Source: Candidatus Omnitrophota bacterium (lineage in GTDB: Bacteria; Omnitrophota; Gorgyraeia; Zapsychrales; Fredricksoniimonadaceae). From it: a stretch of 64,000 nt of DNA. The notes beneath the pieces are model-generated. The model was not told the DNA's origin. It ran no database searches and saw only the letters and a program-made list of their open reading frames with translations. The DNA is taken from contig CAWHFJ010000009.1 in assembly GCA_963828495.1 (NCBI GenBank), positions 234,338 to 298,337 of the forward strand. The letters are read 5' to 3'. Numbering within the stretch: the stretch's first letter is position 1; each line of letters opens with the position of its first letter. Both the position numbers and the translations under genes were made by a program. Of the stretch, positions 4,958 through 56,041 are shown piece after piece.

Positions 4958-5890
4958 ATGCGTAAAGAACGAATTCTTATCATTGATGATGACCCTGATA
5001 TTCGCGACGTCCTTGAACTTAGCCTGTCGGAATATTATGCCATTTCTGCCGCCACCAACGGTCAAGAAGGCCTGGAGATGGTCAAAACTAAAAACCCGGA
5101 TTTAATCATCACCGACTATAATATGCCGGTCATGAACGGCCCTGAGTTCTGCCGTAATCTGCGCCGTGACATTCTGCTGCGCCATCTGCCTGTCATCATG
5201 CTCACCGGTAAAGGAGAAACCAAGGACATGGTCACCGGCATAGAATCCGGAGCTGATGATTACTTGGTCAAGCCCTTTGAGCCTGAAAGCCTGCTGGCAC
5301 GTATTCGCATGATTTTAAAGAGGACCGTCCGTTCGCTGGACGCCAACCCCCTCACCCATCTGCCGGGGAATTCCTCTATTATGGAAGAATTCCAAAGCCA
5401 TATCGACGCCGGAAAGCCCTTCGCGGTGGGCTATGCGGACTTAGACAAATTTAAGATCTATAACGATAAATACGGTTTTGAATGCGGGGATGAGATCATC
5501 CGCGCGCTGGCCCGTATCCTCATCGATGCCACTCAACAGTTTTGCGGAGAAGACGCTTTTGTCGGTCATATCGGAGGGGATGACTTTATATTTATCTGCG
5601 CCGATGATAAAGCCGATGCCATCAGCCAAAAAATCATTAATGACTTTGATAAACTCTCCCCCAGCTTCTACAACGATGAAGACCGCCGGGCAGGTTTTAT
5701 CATGGGTGTTGACCGCCAGGGCAATACCATCAAAGCCGGATTAGTCTCTATTTCCATCGGCATTGTCAGCAATACCAACCAAAAAATAACCCACGTGGCC
5801 CAAATCGGAGAAATTGGTGCGGAGTTAAAGAAATACGCCAAGGCTATCGATAAAAGTAATTTCCAACGGGACCAAAGAAAACAACTATAG
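4958..5890 (+). CDS. response regulator, REC plus GGDEF-family domain with a GGDDF signature
   Basis: REC motifs are IIDDD, DLIITDYNMP and DDYLVKPF. The cyclase-like domain carries YADLDKFKIYND and HIGGDDFIFIC. Confidence 0.85.
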   Translation: MRKERILIIDDDPDIRDVLELSLSEYYAISAATNGQEGLEMVKTKNPDLIITDYNMPVMNGPEFCRNLRRDILLRHLPVIMLTGKGETKDMVTGIESGADDYLVKPFEPESLLARIRMILKRTVRSLDANPLTHLPGNSSIMEEFQSHIDAGKPFAVGYADLDKFKIYNDKYGFECGDEIIRALARILIDATQQFCGEDAFVGHIGGDDFIFICADDKADAISQKIINDFDKLSPSFYNDEDRRAGFIMGVDRQGNTIKAGLVSISIGIVSNTNQKITHVAQIGEIGAELKKYAKAIDKSNFQRDQRKQL

Positions 5891-5929: not shown

Positions 5930-8900
5930 TTATGGGCAATTGTTCACGCAAGAGATCTCGACAAAGCCGCCCGACGGACAAGAGTATGAACCTATACTAC
6001 CGCCGCACGACCTGCCGACATTCTGTGATTGATCAGTGCCTGACGGAAAAGATCCTCCGGTCATCCAGCCGCACTGACATGCAGGACATCCAAAAGCAGG
6101 AACACACGGAGTTACTGTACACGTATATTTTGATGCGACTGACCCTCCACATGTCCCGCAAACATCCCTCGTTTGACAAGTATCACCGGTACAACCGCAA
6201 CCGCTAGCGCAAGATGAGCCGGCTGTTCCGCCGCATACGCCGCAAACATCCTTCGTTTCACAAGTATCACCGGTACAACCGCAGCCGCCAGCGCAGGATG
6301 AGCCCGCTGTTCCGCCGCATACGCCGCAAACATCCTTCGTTTGACAAGTATCACCGGTACAACCGCAGCCGCCAGCGCAGGATGAGCCCGCTGTTCCGCC
6401 GCATACGCCGCAAACATCCTTCGTTTCACAAGTATCACCGGTACAACCGCAGCCGCCAGCGCAGGATGAGCCCGCTGTTCCGCCGCATACCCCGCAAACA
6501 TCCTTCGTTTCACAAGTATCCCCAGTACAACCGCAGCCGCCAGCGCAAGATGAGCCCGCTGTTCCGCCGCATACGCCGCAAACATCCCTTGTTTTACAAG
6601 TATCACCACTACAACCGCAGCCGCCAGCGCAGGATGAGCCCGCTGTTCCGCCGCATACGCCGCAAACATCCTTCGTTTCACAAGTATCACCGGTACAACC
6701 GCAGCCGCTAGCGCAGGATGAGCCCGCTGTTCCGCCGCATACGCCGCAGGCATCAAGAATTGAACAAGTATCACTAGAGCTACAACAAGCCCCTGTACCC
6801 GTACATGCCGTGCAATGTCCGGAAACTCCGCAAGAGGCTGTTGTCCCTGCACAGCTGCCTACACACACATTGCCAACACAGTTCGGAGTACTACCGCTAC
6901 ATGACGTACAATTTCCAGGTGTTCCGCAAGAGGCTGATGTCCCGGCACAGCTGGCCACACACACATTGCCAACACAGTTCGGAGTACTACCGCTACATGA
7001 CGTACAATTTCCAGGTGTTCCGCAAGAGGCTGATGTCCCTGCACAGTCGGCCACACACACATTGCCAACACAGTTCGGGGTGCTACCGCTACATGTCGTG
7101 CAATGTCCGGAAACTCCGCAAGAGGCTGATGTCCCTGCACAGTTGGCTACACACACATTGCCGACACAGTTCGGGGTGCTACCACTACATGCCGTACAAT
7201 TGCCGGAAACTCCGCAAGAGGCTGCTGTCCCTGCACAGTTGGCTACACACACATTACCGACACAGTTCGGGGTGCTACCGCTACATGCCGTACAATTCCC
7301 CGCTATTCCGCAAGAGGCTGCTGTCCCTGCACAGCCGGCCACACACACATTGCCGACACAGTCCGGAGTGCTACCGCTACATGCCGTACAATTGCCGGAA
7401 ACCCCGCAAGAGGCTGCTGTCCCTGCACAGTTGGCTACACACACATTGCCGACACAGTTCGGGGTGCTACCGCTACATGCCGTACAATTCCCCGCTGTTC
7501 CGCAAGAGGCTGCTGTCCCTGCACAGTTGGCTGAACATGCTCCCGCTACACAGGAGCCACTGGAACAAACATTACCGCAGCTACCACAATTATTTTTATC
7601 TGTTGTCGTATTAACACACGTGCCATTACATAACGTCTCATTTCCCGCGCAGCCGCACATGCCGGGTGTACCGGCGGTGCTGCTACTGCAAACCTGCCCA
7701 TTAGGACATCCTCCTTGATGGCTCCCGCAAACATTGCCGCAACTGTCGGTCCCGCAATTATTATTCCCGCAAGGCGTTATGGATACGCAGGCGTTACCGT
7801 TCCAAATCTGACAGAGGGATCCTGAGGGGCCAACAGCAGTACAAATCGATTGGCAAACGCCAACCCCATTACTATAATTGCCACATTGCTGGCCTGAGGG
7901 ACATCCACCATTATTGGCCCCGCACTTGACGGTACAACTGTCCGTACCGCAATTATATGGAGGCGAACCTGACCCACAAGTAGTCTTGGGAGTGCAGCAA
8001 TTGCTGTTCGGACATTGAATACATCCAGGCCCACTGGGATTTGGTTCATACCCTTGAATGCATTGACAAGAATTCGCCGCCCCTCCCCAAGAGGTCGGCA
8101 CTCCGGTACAGTACATGCCTGTCGGGCAATTATAAGACACACAGCTAGAAGGGCCTCCCGTCGTTGAACATGGTGTGCCGCTAGAAGGCTTAGTACATGT
8201 GTATGAGCCATCCGAATTTAATATGGCCTGACATGGTTCACAGGCATTGTTTTGCGAGCTCCAAATAGCATATGAATCACATTGACATTCTACGCTGGTC
8301 GGACATGCAGGATTACACCATGCATTCGCACCGCAAGTGACCGGCACGCATGAACTTGAACTCGCACTCCAAGTAGTACATGGCTGTGTACAGGTTTGAC
8401 CGCATGAGTTATTTAGGCTGTCATACGTAGTCCCTGCCGGACAGATGCATTGGGTGCAATCGGTACTAGGAATAGAGCCGCAGGGCGGCCCAGGACTGGG
8501 GCACGGGCCCTGAGCAGAAGGACAAGTCAAAGTATTTGAACAACCGCAATGGCCATCAGGGGGAAGGCAAATTTGGCCGGTTGGGCATGAGCAAGCAGTG
8601 ACCCCCGTACATGTCACCTTCCCAGACCCTGAACAATAGCTCCCTCCAAAAGTCGGCTCCGGACATGCGCAGGTCTCATACATGACGGGCGTACCATAGC
8701 TTCCCGGAGGCGGACAAATAACCGGACACCAGCCACCATTGATGGCCTGAGGATTTTCTCCCAAGATGACACGAGTAATTGAGTTATAATAGCCCTGGGC
8801 CGAGTTGTGCACCTGGGACATCAGCGCCCCTTGCCTGAAACTGGCGATGACCACCACCGCAACCACCGCTAATAGCAAAAGATACTCTAATGACGTTTGG

Positions 8901-34258: not shown

Positions 34259-35667
34259 TTGACAAAAAACCTCACTATTTTATGCGCCATGAATGCGAGC
34301 AGCACCAAAAACAAGGAAACCAAAGGAAACGCATAACGGTCGATCACAAAAAACACCGAATACATGGCCGCAAACCAAAAAATAAAATTCAATACCCAAA
34401 ATAAGACCCACACCTGGGAATGACTTTGCCGCCAATATGCTCGTCGATAAACACACAAATAACAAAAAGAAAACACGCAGGCACCCCAGGAAAAGAACGC
34501 CAAAACAATCTTGAGACTATTCATCAACCCCGGTGCATAGAAAATCCCTTCCAGCCAATCCGGATAAGCCACAAAAGCAACGGAAGATTCCCAAAAAAAT
34601 ATTTTATGGGCTTCAACGCCCCACAACATAACCGCCTGCAGAGGATTGGCCAAAACCATTCTGATCGAATCGTATATATAATATCGGGAAAGCTCTGCCT
34701 CTGTGGCGCCTTTGGCCTTAAGCTCCTCTCTCTTGGCTTGCGCCACATCCTCCGCATGCCTGTCAGACCAAAAGTCACAATCATCCGTGCCAAATATCGA
34801 CGGACAAACACTTAAGCCCGGCACATACGCCACGGCTGCCCCCAAACGCCTGAGGGTCAACGGCTGCATGCGACATGCCGTATTGCCGTATAAAAACCAA
34901 TCGCCCCTCGGTGTAAAAACAAAATGGCCGTTGGCCTGATAATTCTCCCATTTATAGATATTGACCGCGCCTTCAAAAACAAGAAGGGCCGCCAGACAAA
35001 ACATAATCACATGCTTGGCTTTAAGCAAGTGCCCTCTCCTCCAGCTGGCAACAATGAGCCCATAAAACGGCCATAAATAAAATAATAAAACCCCTTCAGC
35101 AACCGCTTTGACGGACATGATCAGCAAAAACATCAACCCCACCATTGTACCGTGTCCGATGGCCTTGAGCATGCCTCGACGGTCATCGGATAGATTATCC
35201 ATGACCCTCCAGGATTTAATGGTCCATAGCACCGCTAGCACCACCCACGGATACGCGGCGAATTCCGACCATAAACGCATGCTGGAGTTCGTCATGACCG
35301 GTGAGATGCCTAAATAAAAAACAGCCAAACACGCCATAATTCTGGGTATGGACAGCATCCTCATCAAACGGTAAGAAAAAACCATGGTCAACAGCAAAAA
35401 TAACGTGCCTATCATTTTCAAAGGATAGTAATAGGAAATCCCCCACCATTCTCCCAGCTGCATCGACCATGCCACCATGGCCGGAAACAACGGCTCCCGG
35501 TTAGGACCTGTACGGAAAAATTCACCCCATCCCTGGTGAACGATCATTTTGCCTAAATCTTCATAACTGGCGGCATCAAACACGACCACGATCTGGGTGG
35601 TAAAAAATAAATAGATCCACCACAAGAAGGGAATAATAAACGCCCATTTGACGTACGTGTTTTTCAT
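34255..35667 (-). CDS. GT-C fold membrane glycosyltransferase (ArnT/PMT family 39-like)
   Basis: Polytopic membrane protein. The first periplasmic loop FDAASYEDLGKMIV...PNREPLFP resembles the family D-x-x-Y/acidic loop. Confidence 0.65.
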   Translation of the reverse strand: MKNTYVKWAFIIPFLWWIYLFFTTQIVVVFDAASYEDLGKMIVHQGWGEFFRTGPNREPLFPAMVAWSMQLGEWWGISYYYPLKMIGTLFLLLTMVFSYRLMRMLSIPRIMACLAVFYLGISPVMTNSSMRLWSEFAAYPWVVLAVLWTIKSWRVMDNLSDDRRGMLKAIGHGTMVGLMFLLIMSVKAVAEGVLLFYLWPFYGLIVASWRRGHLLKAKHVIMFCLAALLVFEGAVNIYKWENYQANGHFVFTPRGDWFLYGNTACRMQPLTLRRLGAAVAYVPGLSVCPSIFGTDDCDFWSDRHAEDVAQAKREELKAKGATEAELSRYYIYDSIRMVLANPLQAVMLWGVEAHKIFFWESSVAFVAYPDWLEGIFYAPGLMNSLKIVLAFFSWGACVFSFCYLCVYRRAYWRQSHSQVWVLFWVLNFIFWFAAMYSVFFVIDRYAFPLVSLFLVLLAFMAHKIVRFFVK

Positions 35668-46947: not shown

Positions 46948-47169
46948 TTACGCATTCATCAATAACATTTCCGCGTAACTGGGTAATGGCCATAAGTTGG
47001 CCGGAACAAAACCTTCCAGCTCATCAATGGTCTCGCGCAAACTGGCCATGCCGGCAAAAATCTTCGCCGCGTCATGTTTAACCAAAGCCGCCTCCAAGGC
47101 GTCCGTCTCGCTCAATGCCTGATCGATCAGTCCCGAAATTTGCTTTAACAGTTTCTTTTGACCCGTCAT
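46948..47169 (-). CDS. glnN: type III glutamine synthetase, C-terminal fragment
   Basis: ..[13 protein letters not shown] is the GSIII C-terminal tail. It joins 47166..49049 if the A5 run (plus-strand T-run 47169-47173) is read as A6. Confidence 0.8.
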
Positions 47170-49049
47170 TTTTCCGGAACCCCCACAGACTTGATCGTCT
47201 CCGCCACCTGCTTTTGATACTCAATAGCCGCAGGGATCAACTGTGTGCGGGCCATGGTCACTGCGCAATCACCTTCTAAGACCAAAACTGTATGATAGGC
47301 GTGTTTGTTGATCTCATAGCGAGAGGCGATTTCCACCTCAGTCAAAACGCCATGCTTCACCAAAACTTGGATATTCTTCTTGGTCTTGAGGACTTCTATG
47401 GACTCCGGCGTATTTTTTAAATTCGGCAAACCGCGCTTTTTGGCCTCAACAGTCCATTCCGGGACATAATTGTCCCCATTGTAAACCACTCTCTTGTGTT
47501 TCTTAATGATCTCTTGCAGGACTTTTTGCAGGCTGGTATTAAAATTCTTGCCTGCTTTCTTGTCCGCTTCCAATTGGTCACAGATATCAGAAACAGCCTC
47601 AGCCACAATGGTGTTGAGAATCATGTTAGCGGCTGAAGGGTTCATATTAGAACCCACTGCGCGGAATTCGAACTTGGCTCCGGTAAAGGCAAAAGTCGAA
47701 GAACGGTTGCGGTCAGTTGTGTCCTTGGCCAATTGCGGCAAAGAATCAACGCCCACTTGCAATACCCCGCCCTGTTTGGAAGTTTTGGCTCCGCCCTTTT
47801 CAATTTGTTCAATGATATCGGTCAGCTGATCGCCTAAAAAGATAGACACGATCGCCGGAGGCGCTTCATTAGCACCCAGACGATGATCATTGCCGGCCGT
47901 GGCGACACTGACGCGTAAAAGATCCGCATAGGTATCAACCCCTTTGATAACCGCGCACAACAAAGCTAAAAACTTCGCATTATCATGCGGGGTCTTGCCG
48001 GGATACAGCCAATTCTTACCATCCGGCCCTACCACCGACCAGTTATTGTGCTTGCCCGAACCATTGATCCCTGCAAAAGGTTTTTCATGCAATAGGCAAA
48101 CTAACCCATGCTTATCAGCGACCTGACGCATCACTTCCATGGCCACCATGTTATGATCAACGCCGATATTCAGCTCTTCATAAATCGGCGCCATTTCATA
48201 TTGGGCCGGGGCCACTTCATTGTGACGGGTCTTCGACGGCATCCCCAACCCCCACAACGTGCGGTCCAAATCTTCCATAAAGCCCATAATACGCGGCTTG
48301 ATCGCCCCAAAATAATGGTCTTCCTGCTGTTGATGTTTGGCCGGTTTTCTGCCGAAGAGCGTGCGTCCGGTTTCGACCAGATCCAACCGTGCCTCATAAT
48401 GGGCTTTGTCGATGAGAAAATATTCCTGTTCAGGCCCTAACGTGCAGTAGGCGCGCTTACCTTTGGTATCAATGCCAAAAAGATTAGCTAAACGGCAAAC
48501 CTGACGACTTAAAGCCACCATGGAACGCAACAACGGCGTCTTTTTATCCAACGCCTCGCCATGATAACCAATATAAAATGTCGGGATGCACAAGGTGGTT
48601 GCTTCAGGCCCTTCTTTAATGAACGCCGGCGACGTCGGGTCCCAACCTGTATAGCCGCGGGCTTCAAAAGTCGCGCGCAATCCGCCGGAAGGAAAAGAAG
48701 ACGCATCCGGCTCGCCTTGAATAAGCTCTTTACCGGAAAAATTTAAAACAACCCCTCCTGTAGCGTCCCACGCGATAAACGAATCATGTTTTTCAGCAGT
48801 AACGCCGGTCAACGGCTGAAACCAATGCGTAAAATGCGTGGCCCCTTTAGCAATGGCCCATTTTTTCATGGCCTCGGCCACTTCATCGGCAATAGAGACA
48901 TCCAGCTTGCCGCCTTCTTTTATAGTTTTCTCAATAGAAGCATAGGCTTTGGGAGAAAGGCATTCTTTCATCACCTTGAGACTAAATACGTTTTCGCCGA
49001 AATGTTCAGGTAAATATTCACTAAGACCTTGACTCATGTATCCCTCCAA
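47166..49049 (-). CDS. glnN: type III glutamine synthetase, main fragment
   Basis: Size and motifs are those of GSIII (..[10 protein letters not shown].., ..[12 protein letters not shown]..). Confidence 0.85.
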
Positions 49050-49053
49050 TTTG

Positions 49054-49088
49054 GCCCCGCCGCTTGGTTGCTAACAACCAGGCGGGGC
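49054..49088. repeat. conserved bulged GC-rich hairpin, copy 2
   Basis: GCCCCGCC-GCT-TGGTTG-CTAA-CAACCA-GGCGGGGC. It lies just upstream of the glnN RBS. Confidence 0.6.
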
Positions 49089-49100
49089 TGATGTTAATAG

Positions 49101-49150
49101 TAATAAAAGAATTTCACGCAGACTGCTTGCCAGCAGTCTACGTGAAATTC
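49101..49150 (-). terminator. intrinsic terminator after glnA
   Basis: Long stem GAATTTCACG.AGACTGC..GCAGTCT.CGTGAAATTC followed on the minus strand by TTTTATTA. Confidence 0.8.
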
Positions 49151-49188: not shown

Positions 49189-50661
49189 TTAAATATCAAA
49201 ATACAGATAGAACTCATGCGGATGAGGCCTCAAACGCATTGGATCAATCTCGCATTCATGTTTGTATTCAATCCAGGTATCAATCACATCCGGTGTAAAT
49301 ACCCCTCCTTCCAATAAAAACGCGCGGTCTTTGTCTAACGCATCTAAAGCCTGGTCCAAAGAACGCGGAACTTGTTTAATCTTTTTGGCTTCTGCCTCTG
49401 TCAAGGCATAGATATTCTTGTCCAGCGGTTCGCCGGGATCAATCTTATTCTTAATGCCGTCTAATCCGGCCATGAGCATGGCGGCAAAGGCCAAATACGG
49501 GTTGGCGGCAGGGTCCGGCGGACGAAACTCGAGCCTCTTGGTTTTCGGGCTCTTAGAATACATCGGAATACGTACAGCCGCGGAACGGTTGCGCTGGGAA
49601 TACACCAGGTTGACCGGTGCTTCATATCCCGGGACCAAACGTTTATAGGAATTGGTCGTCGGCGCCGCAAAGGCCAAAATGGCATGCGAGTGTTTCAAAA
49701 GACCGCCGATATAATACATGGCCTCTTGGCTTAATAACGCATACCCATCCTTATCGAAAAAGGCATTCTTACCATTTTTCCAAAGGCTTTGGTGGACGTG
49801 CATGCCGGAACCGTTGTCTTTAAAAAGAGGCTTGGGCATAAACGTCGCGGTCATATTATGCTTGCGGGCAGTGTTCTTGATAACATACTTGTAATACATC
49901 AAATTATCCGCCATCTTAACAAGACTGCCGTAGCGGATATCGATCTCGCATTGACCGGCAGTCGCCACTTCATGATGATGCACCTCAATGGGCACGCCGA
50001 TTTTCCTAAGCGTCAGCATGATCTCGGAACGGATGTCCTGGAGCGTATCATGCGGCGGCACCGGGAAATACCCTTCCTTATACCGTGGTTTATACCCTAA
50101 ATTGGGTTGCTCGTCGCGGCCGGAGTTCCAGTCACCCTCATTCGAATCAATGAAATAATAACCGGCATTCTCCGTCTGGTCAAAACGGATGTCATTAAAC
50201 AAGAAAAACTCGGCTTCCGGCCCCCAGTAACTGGTGTCGGCGATACCGGTTTTCTTCAAATATTCTTCTGCCTTCTTGGCAATATACCGCGGGTCTCTCG
50301 AGTAGGCCTTGCGCGTAACCGGGTCAAAAACATCGCAGATAATGCTTAACGTCGGGACTTGGCAGACCGGATCAACAACCGCACTGGACGCATCCGGCAT
50401 CAAGATCATATCGCTTTCATGGATCTTTTGGAAACCGCGGATACTGGAACCGTCAAAACCGATGCCGTCGGTCCAAATACTCGTCGGACTTTCAACGTCC
50501 ATAATATCGGCCGCCGGGATTGAAAAATGCTGCCAGAGGCCCGGCAAATCATTAAACTTAAGGTCAATGATCTCGATCTTATGCTTCTCGATGAGTTTGA
50601 CCACATCTTTCGGGTCTTTCGGCAGACCGTTGCCTTCCATCTTCGTCACTAATGTTGACAT
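49189..50661 (-). CDS. glnA: type I glutamine synthetase
   Basis: [18 protein letters not shown]...[13 protein letters not shown]...RIP. Confidence 0.95.
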
Positions 50662-50710
50662 TTTATTTGCTCCTCTCTAAGTGAAAATGCTCTTTTCAAG
50701 GTGATTGGGC

Positions 50711-50739
50711 ATGATAATATATCTACCTAAAACTGTCAA
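50711..50739 (-). promoter_or_regulatory. sigma70-type promoter candidate for glnA
   Basis: On the minus strand, TTGACA (50739-50734), a 17-nt spacer, then TATCAT (50716-50711). Confidence 0.5.
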
Positions 50740-50759
50740 GATTTTCATCTCTCCTCAGC

Positions 50760-51101
50760 CTACCCGATGGCCTTGGAGCCTTCTTCACCGGTGCGGATGC
50801 GTATACATCGGGGCAAATCCAAAACGAAAATTTTGCCGTCCCCGATTTTTCCGATGCGAGCCCCCTTAATAATGGCCTTGATGGTCGGTTCAACAAAATC
50901 CTCGTTCACGGCGATCTCCAGCTTAATTTTGCGCAGCAAATTGCCGGTTTCCTTGACCCCGCGATAGAATTCGGTGACCCCCACCTGACGGCCATGGCCC
51001 AAAACCTCGGACACCGTGATCAAGTTGACATCCACGGCATACAGCTCCTTCTTGACATCATCGAGCTTGTAGGGCTGAATAAATGCAATGACTAATTTCA
51101 T
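50760..51101 (-). CDS. glnB: P-II nitrogen regulatory protein
   Basis: [17 protein letters not shown]...GHGRQ...GDGKIFV. It is linked to amt, so it could equally be named glnK. Confidence 0.95.
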
Positions 51102-51114
51102 ATCAGAATCCTCC

Positions 51115-52380
51115 TTAATCTAAAATAGTATACGCGCGCTCGTGATGTTGGCTTATATCCAGGCCAAGTATTTCATCTTCGGATGTGGTGCGCATGCCCA
51201 CAGTTTTATCTATCACAAGGCAGATAAGCCATGTGACGGTCCCGCAATAAACAATGGTCAACAAACAGGCTTTGGCCTGAATCAGAAGCTGACCGGGATT
51301 GCCGTCGAAAAGTCCGGAGCCGGCGGCATTAATCGCTTTGACGGCAAAAAGTCCGGTGGCTAAAGCGCCCCACGTCCCTCCGATAAAATGCACCCCGAAA
51401 GCATCCAGTGTGTCATCATAACGGAATTTCGGTTTGACAAAAGAAACCATGGAATAACAAAACACGCTGACCAAAAAACCAATCGCCAAGGCACCGCCGA
51501 CATTCACGAAACCTGAAGCCGGTGTAATGGCCACTAAACCAGCCACAGCACCGGACGCGGCCCCCACCATGGTGGGCTTGCCGGTAAAGATCCACTCACA
51601 CGCCGCCCAGCTAATAGCTGCGGCAGCTGTTGCCGTATTGGTCACCACAAAAGCGCTGGTTGCCAACGCGCCTGCTGAAACAGCGGAACCGGCGTTGAAA
51701 CCAAACCAGCCAAACCATAATAGGGAAGCGCCGATCATCACATACGGCACATTATGCATGCCGGGTTTATCTGTGCCAATGCGCTTGCCTAAAAATAAAG
51801 CGGTGACCAAGCCCGCCAAACCGGCATTCATATGCACGACTGTACCGCCGGCAAAATCCAATGCCCCCCAAGTATGCCCGGCCAAACCATCAGACGACCA
51901 GACCATGTGGCAAATGGGACAATACACAAAGGTCAGCCATAAAACGGTAAACCAGACAAACGCGGAGAATTTTACCCGTTCGGCGAAAGAACCGATCACT
52001 AATGCCGGTGTAATCACCGCAAACATCATCTGGAAAATCATGTAAGCTTGATGCGGAATAGTCGGCGCATAATCCGGATTGGGAGTATTGATATCCACAC
52101 CCTTTAACATAAACCATTGCAATCCGCCTATAAAAGGTTCTAGAATGCCTGACCCTTTACCAAAGGCCAAACTATACCCATAAACTACCCATAAGACACT
52201 GACAATAGCCAAACACATAAAGCATTGCATCAAAACACTTAAGATGTTTTTACGTCTGACCATCCCCCCGTAAAATAGGGCCAATCCCGGTGCCGTCATC
52301 AGCAAAACTAAAGCGGATGAGACCAGGACCCATGCCGTATCCCCGGAATTAATAGGATTTACTGGTGGTGTTGTTCCCAT
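51115..52380 (-). CDS. amt: ammonium transporter
   Basis: [13 protein letters not shown]...FGWFGFN...HFIGGTWG. Confidence 0.95.
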
Positions 52381-52405
52381 ACGTGTCGCCTCCTTTGAGT
52401 TTTAG

Positions 52406-52451
52406 AAAATAAAAAATCCGGTTTGCTGTGCTCCAAAGCACATAAAACCGG
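52406..52451 (-). terminator. intrinsic terminator T2 inside the amt leader
   Basis: CCGGUUUUAUGUGCU-UUGG-AGCACAGCAAACCGG followed by AUUUUUUAUUUU. Confidence 0.7.
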
Positions 52452-52464
52452 ACGTCAATGCCCT

Positions 52465-52510
52465 TAAAAATAGAAAATCCCCTTAGGGTTGTACTTGTTT
52501 CCCTAAGAGG
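52465..52510 (-). terminator. intrinsic terminator T1 inside the amt leader
   Basis: The 10-bp stem CCUCUUAGGG...CCCUAAGGGG followed by AUUUUCUAUUUUU. Confidence 0.6.
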
Positions 52511-52555
52511 ACTTATCTTTGCCCCTTGTATCTGCCCGGAACATCTTTGCCCCGG
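52505..52555 (-). promoter_or_regulatory. tandem GGGGCAAAGAU hairpin pair (candidate ANTAR-type antiterminator target)
   Basis: P1 is CCGGGGC-AAAGAU-GUUCCGG, a hexaloop with A1 and G4. After a 10-nt linker, P2 is GGGGC-AAAGAUAA-GUCCU, whose 3' arm overlaps the 5' arm of T1. Confidence 0.4.
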
Positions 52556-52583
52556 ACTTTTCTCAAATTCAAACTACACGACA

Positions 52584-52612
52584 ACTATACTCGGATAAAA
52601 AATGGTTGTCAA
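52584..52612 (-). promoter_or_regulatory. sigma70-type promoter for the amt-glnB leader
   Basis: On the minus strand, TTGACA (52612-52607), a 17-nt spacer, then TATAGT (52589-52584). It predicts a leader of about 195 nt. Confidence 0.55.
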
Positions 52613-52619
52613 TAAAATT

Positions 52620-52835
52620 TTAAGCGCCCTTAAGAATTCTTTCAGCCTGTTTCCAATCCTCTTCGGCACTGCCAGGGCCGCCGTTACGCTTAAGATAAAG
52701 TTCATAAGCTTTCTCTTGAATTCTCTGAAGAGAAACTTCCTTAGTGGCAGCCTTTGGTGCTGTGGGCGTTTCTACCCTGTTTTTAGGTGTCTGAGAAGTA
52801 AATACTGTCCTTTTAATTGTGCTGGCTTGAGCCAT
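52620..52835 (-). CDS. DUF2934-like small protein
   Basis: The C-terminus IQEKAYELYLKRNGGPGSAEEDWKQAERIL fits DUF2934. The preferred start is the ATG at 52835 with GGGAGGG 5 nt upstream; the track ORF starts at 52937. Confidence 0.65.
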   Translation of the reverse strand: MAQASTIKRTVFTSQTPKNRVETPTAPKAATKEVSLQRIQEKAYELYLKRNGGPGSAEEDWKQAERILKGA

Positions 52836-52862
52836 AAAACCCTCCCTGCCCCATCTGCCCCA

Positions 52863-52896
52863 CTTAAAAAGAGCGGCAACAAACGGCGGCTTGTTA
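52863..52896. repeat. 34-bp inverted-repeat partner 1 (palindromic core TAACAA-N8-TTGTTG)
   Basis: Its reverse complement matches 54303-54336 at 33 of 34 positions. Confidence 0.85.
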
Positions 52897-53005
52897 GATA
52901 AAAATCCTCTCATAAAATTCTCAGAGAAGATGCCCATGCAACGTAACTACCTGAAGGCAATAAATATACACCTGCCTACTTAATTTTGTCAACAAAAATT
53001 TTTCC

Positions 53006-54253
53006 CTATTTTTGTAACTCGGCCATCAAAATAATGGACTCGGCGATGTCTTTCATACAACGACAGGTATCCATGCTTTTCTTATGGATCAAACGATGCG
53101 CAGCATCCTCGGACAGATTGTTCATTTTCATCAAAATACCTTTGGCCCGCTCAATGAGCTTGCGGGTTTCCAGAGCTTCCTTGGCGTTTAAAGCTTCTTC
53201 CATCAATTTGGTGTTCTCTACGGCCACCGCAGCTTGGTTGGCCACCATTTGCAGGACATTGATTTCTTCTTCCGTAAAATGATGCGGCTCTTTGGTATAC
53301 ACATTGACTAGCCCAATGGCCTTGGTCTTAACAATCATCGGCACCACCAGCATGGACGTCAGTCCTTCTTTCAGGGCCAAGTCGCGGTAAAAATATTTTT
53401 CATCCTTACTCACGTCATAGACAACAGCGGGCTTTTTGGATTTGATAACGCTGCCGCTTAAGCTGTTCTCTACCTTAATATTAGGCTTCTGTTTGTAGTC
53501 CTGGCTTAAGGACTGTGTCGCCTTAATGGCAAGCTCTTGGGCCTTATCGTCCAAAATCATAATCGAACAAATTTTCGAATTCAGCATCTCCGCCGTGACA
53601 ACCACAATCAGATTAAGGATTTCATCTAAATAGTGCTCGCTGGTAATCGAATGGCTGACCTTGACCAAAGAATCAAACTGCAGCGCTTTTTTCTTGGCTT
53701 CTTCAAAAAGTCTGGCATGATCAATAATACCGCCGACCTGTTTGGCGATCATTTCAATGAGATTGACTGCACCCCCAGAATAATCCTGCGGGCTTTGATG
53801 CTGGACATTAACGACGCCGATCGCCTTGCCCTTATAAATAATCGGTACGGACAAAAACGCCTCATAACGGTCTTCGGGGAGCACGTCGAAACTTTTAAAG
53901 CGCGCATCGCTATAGGCACGGGATTTGATGGCTACTGTCTTGTTTTCACGGGCCACCCAGCCGGTAATGCCTTCGCCGACTTTAAGCACCACATTGCCCA
54001 ATTCTTTTTTATGGGCGGTTTTGGAGGCCATCAACACGAGATTCTGTTTACTCTCATCAAAAAGATAAATAAAAACAGAATCCGCGTCCGTCATCTCTGT
54101 GACGATTTTAACGATTAACTGCAAGGTCAAATTTAAATCAAGCTCGGAGGAGGCAATATCAACGACATTGCGTAAAATCTGCAGCTCTTTGGCGCTGGTA
54201 ATGCTTAATTTTTTATTTTTCGTTCGGCCCACCATGATGAATAAACATAACAC
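53006..54253 (-). CDS. GAF-GAF-ANTAR RNA-binding antiterminator-type regulator
   Basis: Two GAF-like domains and a C-terminal ANTAR motif (RKLIERAKGILMKMNNLSEDAAHRLIHKKSMD). Confidence 0.85.
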   Translation of the reverse strand: MLCLFIMVGRTKNKKLSITSAKELQILRNVVDIASSELDLNLTLQLIVKIVTEMTDADSVFIYLFDESKQNLVLMASKTAHKKELGNVVLKVGEGITGWVARENKTVAIKSRAYSDARFKSFDVLPEDRYEAFLSVPIIYKGKAIGVVNVQHQSPQDYSGGAVNLIEMIAKQVGGIIDHARLFEEAKKKALQFDSLVKVSHSITSEHYLDEILNLIVVVTAEMLNSKICSIMILDDKAQELAIKATQSLSQDYKQKPNIKVENSLSGSVIKSKKPAVVYDVSKDEKYFYRDLALKEGLTSMLVVPMIVKTKAIGLVNVYTKEPHHFTEEEINVLQMVANQAAVAVENTKLMEEALNAKEALETRKLIERAKGILMKMNNLSEDAAHRLIHKKSMDTCRCMKDIAESIILMAELQK

Positions 54254-54302: not shown

Positions 54303-54336
54303 TAACAAGCCGCCGTTTGTTACCGCTCTTTTTAAG
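54303..54336. repeat. 34-bp inverted-repeat partner 2 (palindromic core TAACAA-N8-TTGTTA)
   Basis: TAACAAGCCGCCGTTTGTTACCGCTCTTTTTAAG lies 50-85 bp upstream of the ANTAR gene start. Confidence 0.85.
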
Positions 54337-54442: not shown

Positions 54443-56041
54443 TTAAATATCCGTACCATAAAAAATCTGCCCCTGCTGGGTCTGGAAATCATACCAGGCA
54501 TCGCCGTCACCGTTGCCGCCGTAATAATAAGTGGGCGGCGAGGCTTCTATGATTTGTAAAATGTTGCCCGCGTCATAACCATAAGCAGCGCCGGTATCCA
54601 GCATCAATTGCCCGATCCCGGCAGAATTAAAATTCGCGAAATTTAACCCGCTAATCAAAATATAGTCCCCGTCATTAAAATTGGTCGTCACCGTAAGGAC
54701 AAGCGTAGTATTTGAATTAGCATAACTGACCGTTGCCGAGACCTTGCCGGAAGCGCCGCCGCTGATTGTCGCTGTGGTGATCAAGGGATCCCAGGCCATC
54801 TTCAGCCCTGAGGGAATGTCTACTTTAATGCCGCTGGAAGTGGTGATTCCGGTCCCCGAGCCGGCGGTGTCCTGCATGACTTCAATTGTCCCGGCTGAGG
54901 CCGATGCGCCGTTGTTGACGAAAGCCTGCTCGGTGAAGGCCAGCAGGGCCGGCGGATACCGGCCGTACGAGTCCCCGCTGCCGTTGCCGCCGTAATAATA
55001 AGTGGGCGGCGAGGCTTCTATAATTTGTAAAGCGTTGTCCGCGTCATAACCATAAGCAGCACCGGTATCCAGCATCAATTGCCCGGTCCCGACAGAATTG
55101 AAATTCTTGAAATTTAACCCGCTGATCAAAATATAGTCCCCGTCATTAAAATTGGTCGTCACCGTAAGGACAAGCGTAGTATTTGAATTAGCATAACTGA
55201 CCGTTGCCGAAACCTTGCCGGAAGCGCTGCCGCTGATTGTCGCTGTGGTGATCGAAGGGGCCCAGGTCATATTCAGCCCTGAGGGAATGTCTACTTTAAT
55301 GCCGCTGGAAGTGGTGATTCCGGTCCCCGAGCCGGCGGTGTCCTGCATGACCTCGATTGTCCCGGCTGAGGCCGATGCGCCGCTGTTGACGAAAGCCTGC
55401 CCGGTGGAGGCAAGCAGGGCCGGCGGATACCGACCGTAGGAGTCCCCGCTCCCGTTACCACCCAGATATGGTGGCGGACAACCGGCTCTGATTGTCCAGT
55501 TACTGCCGTTGTCGCTGACGCTGGAACTGCCATACGCCGTGATCACGGCTGACCCGCCCTGGTCTTTTACAGTCACATCCGTTATCAAGAAGCCCCCTCT
55601 GCCGCTCCAGGATCGCTGTATACCGGAAGAGCTTGAAGTGATGGCAATCGATTGAGTACTGCCGCAAATCAAATCCGATCCGTCAAACTCGATGATGCCG
55701 AAATTAGACACGCCACCGCTTCCCACAATCAGGCCTCCGGTCCCATTGTTGGTCATCGTTGCGCCGGAGCTGATGGTCAGGGCGCCGGTGCCGGTCGTTA
55801 AATTATACGACGCGCTCTGGTCAAAGGTCCCGGAAGACACAGTCACAGTCCCTGTGACAGTTGTATTTCCGTCTAAAGCGGCGGTATAACCGGTGTCGGC
55901 AAGGGTCAGATTAGTGTAAGTGCCGTACGCTGACTGTCTGGTTGGCGGCTGTTGAATCATAATAAACCGTACCTCCCCAGGTTTTGCCTGTTGATAATGG
56001 AGGGTTGGCCGTGCATTCTGTTTGGACGGTGCCTGAATCAT
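54443..56041 (-). CDS. secreted Thr/Ser/Gly-rich beta-helix-like surface protein, C-terminal fragment
   Basis: It continues 55911..56945 after a shift near 55925 (..AANQTV / SAYGTYTNLTL.., compare the earlier QTVLGTTYDNLTLS). It contains a 157-aa tandem duplication. Confidence 0.7.
   Translation of the reverse strand: MIQAPSKQNARPTLHYQQAKPGEVRFIMIQQPPTRQSAYGTYTNLTLADTGYTAALDGNTTVTGTVTVSSGTFDQSASYNLTTGTGALTISSGATMTNNGTGGLIVGSGGVSNFGIIEFDGSDLICGSTQSIAITSSSSGIQRSWSGRGGFLITDVTVKDQGGSAVITAYGSSSVSDNGSNWTIRAGCPPPYLGGNGSGDSYGRYPPALLASTGQAFVNSGASASAGTIEVMQDTAGSGTGITTSSGIKVDIPSGLNMTWAPSITTATISGSASGKVSATVSYANSNTTLVLTVTTNFNDGDYILISGLNFKNFNSVGTGQLMLDTGAAYGYDADNALQIIEASPPTYYYGGNGSGDSYGRYPPALLAFTEQAFVNNGASASAGTIEVMQDTAGSGTGITTSSGIKVDIPSGLKMAWDPLITTATISGGASGKVSATVSYANSNTTLVLTVTTNFNDGDYILISGLNFANFNSAGIGQLMLDTGAAYGYDAGNILQIIEASPPTYYYGGNGDGDAWYDFQTQQGQIFYGTDI
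54500..55470 (-). repeat. 471-bp in-frame tandem duplication (2 copies plus a partial third)
   Basis: Anchor GTTGCCGCCGTAATAATAAGTGGGCGGCGAGGCTTCTAT occurs at 54512 and 54983. The copies are nearly identical. Confidence 0.85.

Follow-up and report, generated by a model that had tools for sequence, protein, structure and literature searches.

A predicted ANTAR antitermination leader with two serial terminators upstream of amt-glnB in a Candidatus Omnitrophota bacterium

Introduction

The RNA substrate of ANTAR regulators has been described as two hexaloop hairpins with A at loop position 1 (A1) and G at loop position 4 (G4), the second of which (P2) overlaps a transcription terminator (Ramesh et al., 2012; PMC3369931). 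The same study reported covariance matches upstream of genes for PII proteins, ammonium transporters and glutamine/glutamate synthases in many bacteria, with one Desulfotomaculum species carrying 13 elements in six transcription units. In Geobacter sulfurreducens, the ANTAR protein GnfR relieves premature terminators in nifH, and a conserved hairpin-forming sequence overlapping terminators is also found before glnK and amtB (Ueki and Lovley, 2010; PMC2995071). Hexaloops are bound singly by an ANTAR dimer, which has been proposed to engage P1 first and then P2 (Walshe et al., 2022; PMC8934654). To date, the one-component ANTAR proteins that have been characterised, NasR and PAL, include no GAF-ANTAR protein (PMC7496416). 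Here we describe the leader of an ammonium transporter gene (amt) and its companion PII gene (glnB) in a 64-kb window, by which we mean the whole stretch of DNA examined, from a member of Candidatus Omnitrophota, a phylum that lay outside the 2012 sampling of ANTAR regulons (PMC3369931) and for which our full-text literature searches on ANTAR regulation found nothing. It is very probable that this leader is a transcription-attenuation switch run, through ANTAR antitermination, by the GAF-GAF-ANTAR protein encoded next to it.

The mechanism is a known one and is not new, ANTAR hairpins before ammonium-transporter and PII genes having been reported bioinformatically in 2012. With the EutV-controlled eut leaders of Enterococcus faecalis the Omnitrophota leader shares paired A1/G4 hairpins a few nucleotides (nt) apart, the overlap of the 3' arm of P2 with a terminator, and an ANTAR protein encoded nearby; with the regulons of Ramesh et al. 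(2012; PMC3369931) it has ammonium transporter, PII and glutamine synthetase targets in common. Unlike the EutV system, the regulator is here a one-component GAF-GAF-ANTAR protein and no response regulator, the P2 loop has 8 nt, the same leader has a further terminator, which is accompanied by a lone hexaloop hairpin, and a conserved G.U wobble beside the loop-closing C-G pair is typical of the Omnitrophota sites. The GnfK/GnfR system is similar in that an ANTAR protein relieves premature terminators in nitrogen-gene leaders, including those of glnK and amtB, and the single conserved hairpin sequence of GnfR targets (CAGGCAANGGCGCC), which lies at the terminator and overlaps it, resembles the hairpin P3 and the lone modules described below. 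However, GnfR acts as a phosphorylated response regulator of the REC-ANTAR type and is controlled by sigma-54/GnfLM, whereas the promoters here are sigma-70-like, and its hairpin sequence is unlike the GGGC-ANNGAN-GUCC of this locus. NasR/nasF of Klebsiella and NasS-NasT likewise combine a one-component or ligand-gated ANTAR protein with a two-hairpin leader, a terminator and a nitrogen-assimilation operon, but in those systems a NIT domain or the NasS partner senses nitrate/nitrite, and the targets are nitrate-assimilation genes and not amt-glnB. PtsP (EI-Ntr), which has a GAF domain similar to that of the regulator, differs in its phosphoenolpyruvate-dependent phosphotransferase output, the predicted output here being an RNA-binding ANTAR domain. 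The serial modules, the expanded P2 loop, the frequent lone modules and the PtsP-like GAF sensor go beyond the textbook case and recommend the system as an experimental model, though they are no surprise; a modest novelty lies in the serial modules and the many lone modules.

Results

Anatomy and alternative folds of the amt-glnB leader

All leader features lie on the minus strand (Table 1). A sequence-only reading of this DNA had proposed a near-consensus promoter and a leader of about 195 nt, and both held: the two promoter hexamers are invariant in 10 aligned relatives, a TTGAC is found 35–56 nt 5' of P1 in 37 leaders, and the leader is roughly 195 nt long, with P1 beginning ~20 nt past the predicted transcription start. 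The proposed P1 hexaloop with A1 and G4 is present, on a stem of 9 bp and not 7 (folding energy -15.8 kcal/mol, z -5.1). P2 is weak when folded alone (-6.1 kcal/mol, z -1.1) and follows after a linker of 8 nt instead of the 10 first counted. Its claimed overlap with the first terminator, T1, was borne out, the sequence GUCCU being common to the 3' arm of P2 and the first 5 nt of the T1 5' arm; the T1 stem (-17.7 kcal/mol, z -3.4) is 12 bp long and not 10. The second strong terminator that had been placed just before the ribosome-binding site (RBS) was also recovered (T2; -21.3 kcal/mol, z -5.5), and it ends 9 nt before the amt RBS. What the sequence-only reading had missed is P3, a further hexaloop hairpin located directly after the U-run of T1, the 3' arm of which (GUCC) overlaps the base of the T2 5' arm. 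Each of the two terminators has at least 9 U in the 11 nt directly 3' of its stem-loop. Neither appeared in the output of a simple terminator scan, because that scan accepts loops of 3–8 nt only and T1 has a 12-nt loop and T2 an internal loop.

The unconstrained minimum-energy fold of the leader consists of P1, T1 and T2 (-67.2 kcal/mol, z -5.3 versus shuffled sequences). When the nascent RNA extends only to the end of P2, the minimum-energy fold is P1 plus P2, and T1 displaces P2 once the 3' arm of T1 is present. Forcing the hairpins to form costs 6.8 kcal/mol for P2, 2.8 for P3 and 9.0 for both; in the forced state T1 is reduced to its upper 7 bp, away from the U-run, and T2 is left without the 4 bp adjoining its U-run. 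P2 and T1, and likewise P3 and T2, are mutually exclusive, as emerged from folding the alternative structures, a check that had been suggested beforehand. In this folding model the default state would be termination, because the terminators outcompete P2 and P3 unless the hairpins are stabilised; read-through would result if some factor stabilised P2 and P3, which would be the logic of an antiterminator protein. Since each terminator overlaps its own competing hairpin, the leader is best modelled as two antitermination modules in series, with T2 paired with its own hexaloop hairpin P3.

Specificity and conservation of the hairpin pair

A covariance model, R1, was built from 25 P1-P2 segments of leaders and run on the window with filters off. 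The P1-P2 site scored 56.7 bits (E=2e-13) and was the only significant match in the 64 kb; P3 was the second-best match in the window (E=0.11). The 11-mer GGGGCAAAGAT occurs in exactly two copies in the window, both of them in the leader. No other ANTAR site was found in the window by R1 and motif search, and the motif was not found in its glnB-glnA and glnA-GSIII intergenic regions. Two motif-like minus-strand hairpins, at 34608–34621 (GGGC-GUUGAA-GCCC) and 8815–8830 (GGGGC-GCUGAU-GUCCC), overlap no terminator, have no significant R1 score and are probably due to chance.

A scan of a genome collection by means of the ANTAR regulator protein provided 80 related Omnitrophota loci. R1 yielded 61 matches at E<=0.01 in 50 of them, all 61 on the strand of the ANTAR gene and downstream of it, and none on the other strand. 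Whether orthologous amt genes are preceded by the motif had been named beforehand as a test; a match lies upstream of 32 of the 33 orthologues, defined at 62% identity or more, and the proposal is left unrefuted. The genes 3' of the matches were amt (23), a small open reading frame (ORF) for a ~40-aa hydrophobic peptide preceding amt (about 12), glutamine synthetases (5) and a porin-like protein (2). The gene order ANTAR-(DUF2934)-amt-glnB-(glnA/GSIII) is kept in about 45 of the 80 loci.

The plan that recurs 5' of amt in the relatives comprises a TTGACA promoter, a P1 of 7–11 bp placed 35–56 nt further on, a short linker, and GGRC-[A/G]NNGNN(N)(N)-GUCC overlapping a terminator. Linkers are mostly 5–12 nt long; those of 17–45 nt seen in some relatives seem able to form a hairpin of their own, as judged by eye and not by folding. 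The position of T1 is kept and its inner stem varies. In 10 close relatives the whole leader (promoter, P1, P2, T1, P3 and T2) can be aligned; there, GGGCAUUGAAGUCCGG is nearly invariant while its flanks vary, and the inner stem of T2 covaries, GC being replaced by AU in 4 of the 10. In all 25 aligned leaders the P1 loop has G4, with either A or G at position 1.

Covariation was assessed in two alignments, one of the 25 leader sequences and one of 60 distinct R1-aligned matches, with 500 shuffles each. In both, 8 of the 9 P1 pairs show compensatory changes (for example, CCGG/CCGG replaced by CACA/UGUG, UCAAA/UUUGA or UAAAG/CUUUA). P1 cells were paired in 96.9% (25 sequences) and 96.5% (60 sequences) of cases, percentages that are inflated by the picking of sequences with a hairpin finder or their alignment to the model; the variety of pair types seen in any fixed column is not inflated in this way. 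Over P1 and P2 together, cells with two-sided changes numbered 60 against a shuffle mean of 17 in the smaller alignment and 164 against 51 in the larger, and the covariation score was equalled in 0 of 500 shuffles in either. As a control, sliding the 3' partner by one column lowered pairing to ~55%. The C-G pair that closes the loop does not vary, and the G.U wobble beside it occurs in 37 of 60 sequences for P1 and 41 of 60 for P2.

The sequence-only reading had also remarked that P2 fits the hexaloop model imperfectly. Its loop in the window, AAAGAUAA, does keep A1 and G4 and has 8 nt under canonical pairing. A loop of 7–8 nt, made up of AAAGAU and 1–2 extra nt on the 3' side, is found in 17 of the aligned leaders, those from the closest loci with regulators of 78% identity or more, and a true P2 hexaloop in the 8 more distant leaders of the 25-leader alignment. 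Because distant orthologous leaders have the true hexaloop, the 8-nt loop is read from the aligned sequences as a clade-specific expansion, and we see in it no sign of a wrong model.

Hexaloop-terminator modules in the related loci

We searched the 80 loci with a strict 14-nt motif, G[GA][GA]C-[AG]NNGNN-G[UC]C[CU], and used stem/loop forms of 14–16 nt for the classification of modules. The strict motif occurs in 156 sense-strand copies and 19 antisense copies. When a strict terminator criterion was applied (a perfect stem of at least 6 bp overlapping the strict stem/loop motif), 110 sense-strand copies and no antisense copy had an overlapping terminator. Looser generic hairpin and terminator finders called many 'terminators' by chance and were dropped. 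A total of 132 hairpin-terminator modules were classified, resulting in three forms: (i) 38 dual modules, with a free hexaloop hairpin, its stem 6 bp or longer, located 3–45 nt upstream, (ii) 33 followers, which lie directly after the terminator of another module, as P3 does, and (iii) up to 61 partnerless modules, probably including some with an imperfect P1 (e.g. in loci L006 and L012). For several modules without a partner, only ~10–15 nt separate the predicted transcription start from the module, too few to accommodate a P1; examples are found in the DUF2934 leaders of L002, L003, L004 and L006, and in the glutamine synthetase leaders of L001, L009, L012, L016 and L024.

An insertion of ~70 nt (GGTTCGACTCA...CCTGAGCGAGTC...GACGAGTCGAAGGA) lies between T1 and P3 in L024 (~5715–5785), and also in the leaders of L016, L018 and L019; it has the look of a small repeat element that may be mobile or structured.

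The regulator and its candidate signal

The GAF-GAF-ANTAR gene that had been noticed near the leader was confirmed by Pfam, is adjacent (it ends ~450 nt upstream of P1) and is kept in conserved synteny. Its ANTAR domain (PF03861) scores 73.1 bits against a cutoff of 27.3 and can be aligned to EutV, Rv1626 and NasR; no second ANTAR protein was found among the proteins of the window. Homologues of the regulator number in the thousands; the best 120 are 70–96% identical, and those with a source name are labelled as Candidatus Omnitrophica/Omnitrophota. The EutV residues reported to contact the hexaloop, R142, K143, K149, E160 and M172, correspond to R364, K365, K371, E382 and M394 of the regulator, allowing for a numbering offset of two. 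R364, K371, E382 and M394 are invariant in 17 homologues and K365 is nearly so (at least 90%). Tyr164 of EutV, which stacks on G4, is replaced by His in the regulator of the window and is Tyr in most homologues.

The best solved-structure match of the first GAF domain is the GAF domain of PtsP/EI-Ntr (PDB 3ci6, E=3e-24). The PtsP GAF domain binds glutamine and reports nitrogen status (PMC4848567). The signal read by the GAF domains would most likely be nitrogen status. Because of the resemblance to PtsP, its most plausible form by analogy would be glutamine itself or the balance of glutamine and 2-oxoglutarate, with low glutamine as the likeliest 'on' state.

Neighbouring genes and other features of the locus

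Table 1. Leader elements and nitrogen genes of the locus
Feature	Position	Strand	Description
Sigma-70-type promoter	52584..52612	minus	TTGACA-17-TATAGT; 11/12 consensus positions; predicted transcription start ~52577
P1	52534..52557	minus	GUCCGGGGC-AAAGAU-GUUCCGGGC; 9 bp, hexaloop with A1 and G4; no terminator overlap
P2	52508..52525	minus	GGGGC-AAAGAUAA-GUCCU; 5 bp, 8-nt loop; putative antiterminator hairpin
T1	52464..52512	minus	GUCCUCUUAGGG...CCCUAAGGGGAU; 12-bp stem, 12-nt loop (52512-52477), then U-run UUUCUAUUUUU
P3	52450..52463	minus	GGGC-AUUGAC-GUCC; hexaloop with A1/G4
T2	52406..52453	minus	stem-loop 52453-52416 with internal loop, then U-run UUUUUUAUUUU to 52406
amt RBS	52389..52396	minus	AAAGGAGG; 8 nt before ATG at 52380; from sequence
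GAF-GAF-ANTAR regulator	53006..54253	minus	Pfam: two GAF and ANTAR; likely true start ATG at 54235
DUF2934 gene	52620-52937 as listed	minus	Pfam; between regulator and leader
amt, ammonium transporter	51115..52380	minus	421 aa; Pfam PF00909, E=4.8e-120
glnB/glnK, PII protein	50760..51101	minus	113 aa; Pfam PF00543, E=1e-22
GlnA	49189-50661	minus	Pfam
GSIII	47166-49049	minus	Pfam

The true start of the DUF2934 gene is more likely the ATG at 52835, behind a GGGAGGG site; homology begins at about residue 30 of the listed ORF. The gene has its own promoter, TTGACA-18-TATATT, at 52992–52963, and no terminator lies between it and the amt leader; its read-through transcripts would therefore also meet T1 and T2. 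The 5' untranslated region (UTR) of DUF2934 contains a terminator-like hairpin at ~52925–52895, followed by UUUUUAUC. At the same leader position, L002, L003, L004 and L006 have a lone hexaloop hairpin overlapping a terminator; in the window, as in L001 and L012, that hairpin is either absent or degenerate. The sequence-only reading had pointed to a related sequence (GGGGCAGAUGGGGCAGG) before DUF2934, and here its claim fell: the candidate ANTAR site GGGGCAGAUGGGGCAGGGAGG (52861–52841) forms no hexaloop hairpin and is not conserved in relatives; in the predicted fold it pairs with the repeat arm just before it, GCCGCCGUUUGUUGCCGC, and makes up the 3' strand of a long stem. A 34-nt inverted repeat with 33 of 34 identical positions brackets the GAF-GAF-ANTAR gene, one arm lying in the DUF2934 5' UTR (52863–52896) and the other upstream of the regulator gene (54303–54336), with a palindromic core AACAA-N8-TTGTT. 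No further copy was found in the rest of the window, in the 80 related loci or in a scan of a metagenome collection; candidate explanations of the repeat are a duplication specific to this lineage, an operator, or RNA pairing over a long range.

In most relatives a conserved hydrophobic peptide of ~40 aa (...AERMAFLFAMAQIALALGLFWAFKAHLV) is encoded between the last leader terminator and amt (e.g. L001 5888–6016, and also L003, L004, L006, L009-L011, L014, L017, L021 and L024). The window is without it, and T2 is followed by the amt RBS. The glnB-glnA intergenic region (50662–50759) keeps the promoter TTGACA-17-TATCAT as in the relatives and is without a lone hexaloop-terminator module, one of which the relatives have before glnA or GSIII (e.g. 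L001 7739, L016 7355, L024 7849); it seems that in the host genome only amt-glnB remains under hexaloop-terminator control. A 19-bp terminator-like palindrome follows glnA (49109–49150), and a strong G+C-rich hairpin without a U-run, CAGCCCCGCC...GGCGGGGCC (49057–49094), directly precedes the RBS of GSIII, where it may act in translation or processing. Further upstream, a direct repeat of 300 nt (92% identical, 471-nt period; 54501–54800 and 54972–55271) lies inside a 532-aa minus-strand ORF (54443–56041) that has no Pfam match.

Discussion

The loop of P1, the overlap of P2 with T1, the synteny, the sites before 32 of 33 amt genes and the covariation of P1 all support the earlier proposal of an ANTAR-type dual-hairpin antiterminator for amt-glnB as far as comparative sequence analysis can carry it, and its statement that ANTAR control of amtB/glnB-type genes has been described is accurate for the glnK and amtB leaders of the GnfR system (PMC2995071). 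From these data we infer how protein binding, its order, termination, read-through and the ligand would fit together. By default the RNA would fold into T1 and T2 in series, and transcription would stop before amt. With the regulator active, its dimeric ANTAR domain would first capture the hexaloop of P1 and then hold the weak P2; as the GUCCU of the P2 3' arm is the base of T1, T1 could not then reach its U-run. The regulator would next hold P3, the 3' arm of which (GUCC) is the base of T2, so that RNA polymerase would pass both terminators and amt-glnB would be expressed.

Several observations weigh against this interpretation or parts of it. The loci were gathered through the ANTAR protein, which means that the co-occurrence of the motif and the ANTAR gene is partly built into the sample. 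The P2 loop of the window is not a hexaloop, and the P2 stem (GGRC/GUCC) is essentially invariant among the 60 sequences, such that covariation cannot confirm its pairing; P2 pairing is supported instead by its conserved sequence and by a terminator overlap that is constantly present. For the ligand, the assignment is based only on ~38% similarity between one GAF domain and that of PtsP. Lastly, P3 is a lone hairpin located 44 nt downstream of P2, and lengthening the P1-P2 linker of EutV by 20 nt abolished antitermination (PMC8934654); P3 would therefore need to be captured independently, or the path to it would have to be shortened by the upper T1 stem.

The position of P3 bears most directly on an alternative in which only P1-P2/T1 is controlled by the ANTAR protein, T2 being a constitutive, leaky fail-safe terminator or one that belongs to another factor, and the likeness of P3 to a hexaloop hairpin having no function. 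The P3 stem comprises only 4 bp, P3 is without a partner hairpin close by, its distance from P2 is beyond the spacing tolerated by EutV, and the covariation of its stem is slight. We nevertheless regard this alternative as unlikely, because the overlap of hairpin and terminator appears to be a selected unit in its own right: GGGCAUUGAAGUCCGG is nearly invariant in the 10 relatives while its flanks and the inner stem of T2 vary, the 33 followers and as many as 61 lone modules show a terminator overlap on the sense strand, compared with no case on the antisense strand, and some lone modules begin so close to the predicted transcription start that there is no space for a partner hairpin. A bolder extension, which we put forward tentatively and with somewhat more doubt than conviction, is that the working ANTAR unit in Omnitrophota may be a single hexaloop hairpin overlapping a terminator, in place of the canonical dual hairpin, and the leader a relay from P1 to P2 to P3. 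One GAF-GAF-ANTAR dimer would be recruited by P1, handed to P2 and then to P3, and the two serial terminators would multiply the on/off ratio. If this is true, antitermination on a moving polymerase would need no second hexaloop, in contradiction to the spacing limit of EutV and to the dual-hairpin requirement.

The sampling of loci through the ANTAR gene also leaves its linkage to the hairpins without the force of an independent observation, and one could suppose that the gene is a mere neighbour, the hairpins being recognised by another RNA-binding factor or the leader being a metabolite riboswitch (e.g. for glutamine). This is most improbable in view of the conserved parts, which are two to three simple hairpins with loops fitting the A1/G4 rule and which include no conserved multi-helix ligand pocket; moreover, the hexaloop-contacting residues are kept in the ANTAR domain, and ANTAR regulons of nitrogen genes following the same logic are documented (PMC3369931). 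An Rfam scan that included the glutamine riboswitch (glnA RNA) found no family matching the leader at gathering thresholds, and at E<=10 gave chance-level matches only, the glutamine riboswitch not being among them. The weak matches (the trpB motif as the best, with 23.6 bits against a threshold of 59, the L20-leader and a snoRNA) are chance resemblances to a hairpin plus a terminator. It could finally be argued that T1 and T2 simply terminate DUF2934, downstream of which they lie and which has no other terminator 3' of it, and that the hairpins arose by chance. This is hardly credible: a conserved near-consensus promoter stands between the DUF2934 stop codon and P1, the P1-P2-terminator unit precedes amt also in loci that have no DUF2934 gene, and the chance probability of the hairpin arrangement is negligible.

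With control by the adjacent ANTAR protein as the preferred explanation, the leader would represent a phylogenetically validated example, at the sequence level, of ANTAR antitermination for ammonium uptake in an uncultivated phylum. It connects the uncharacterised class of GAF-ANTAR regulators with a concrete target RNA and with a signal that is plausible. The tandem arrangement of P2/T1 and P3/T2, together with the lone modules of the relatives, provides natural test cases for whether two hairpins are needed or one hexaloop is enough, and R1 can be used to annotate nitrogen regulons in metagenome-assembled genomes of Omnitrophota.

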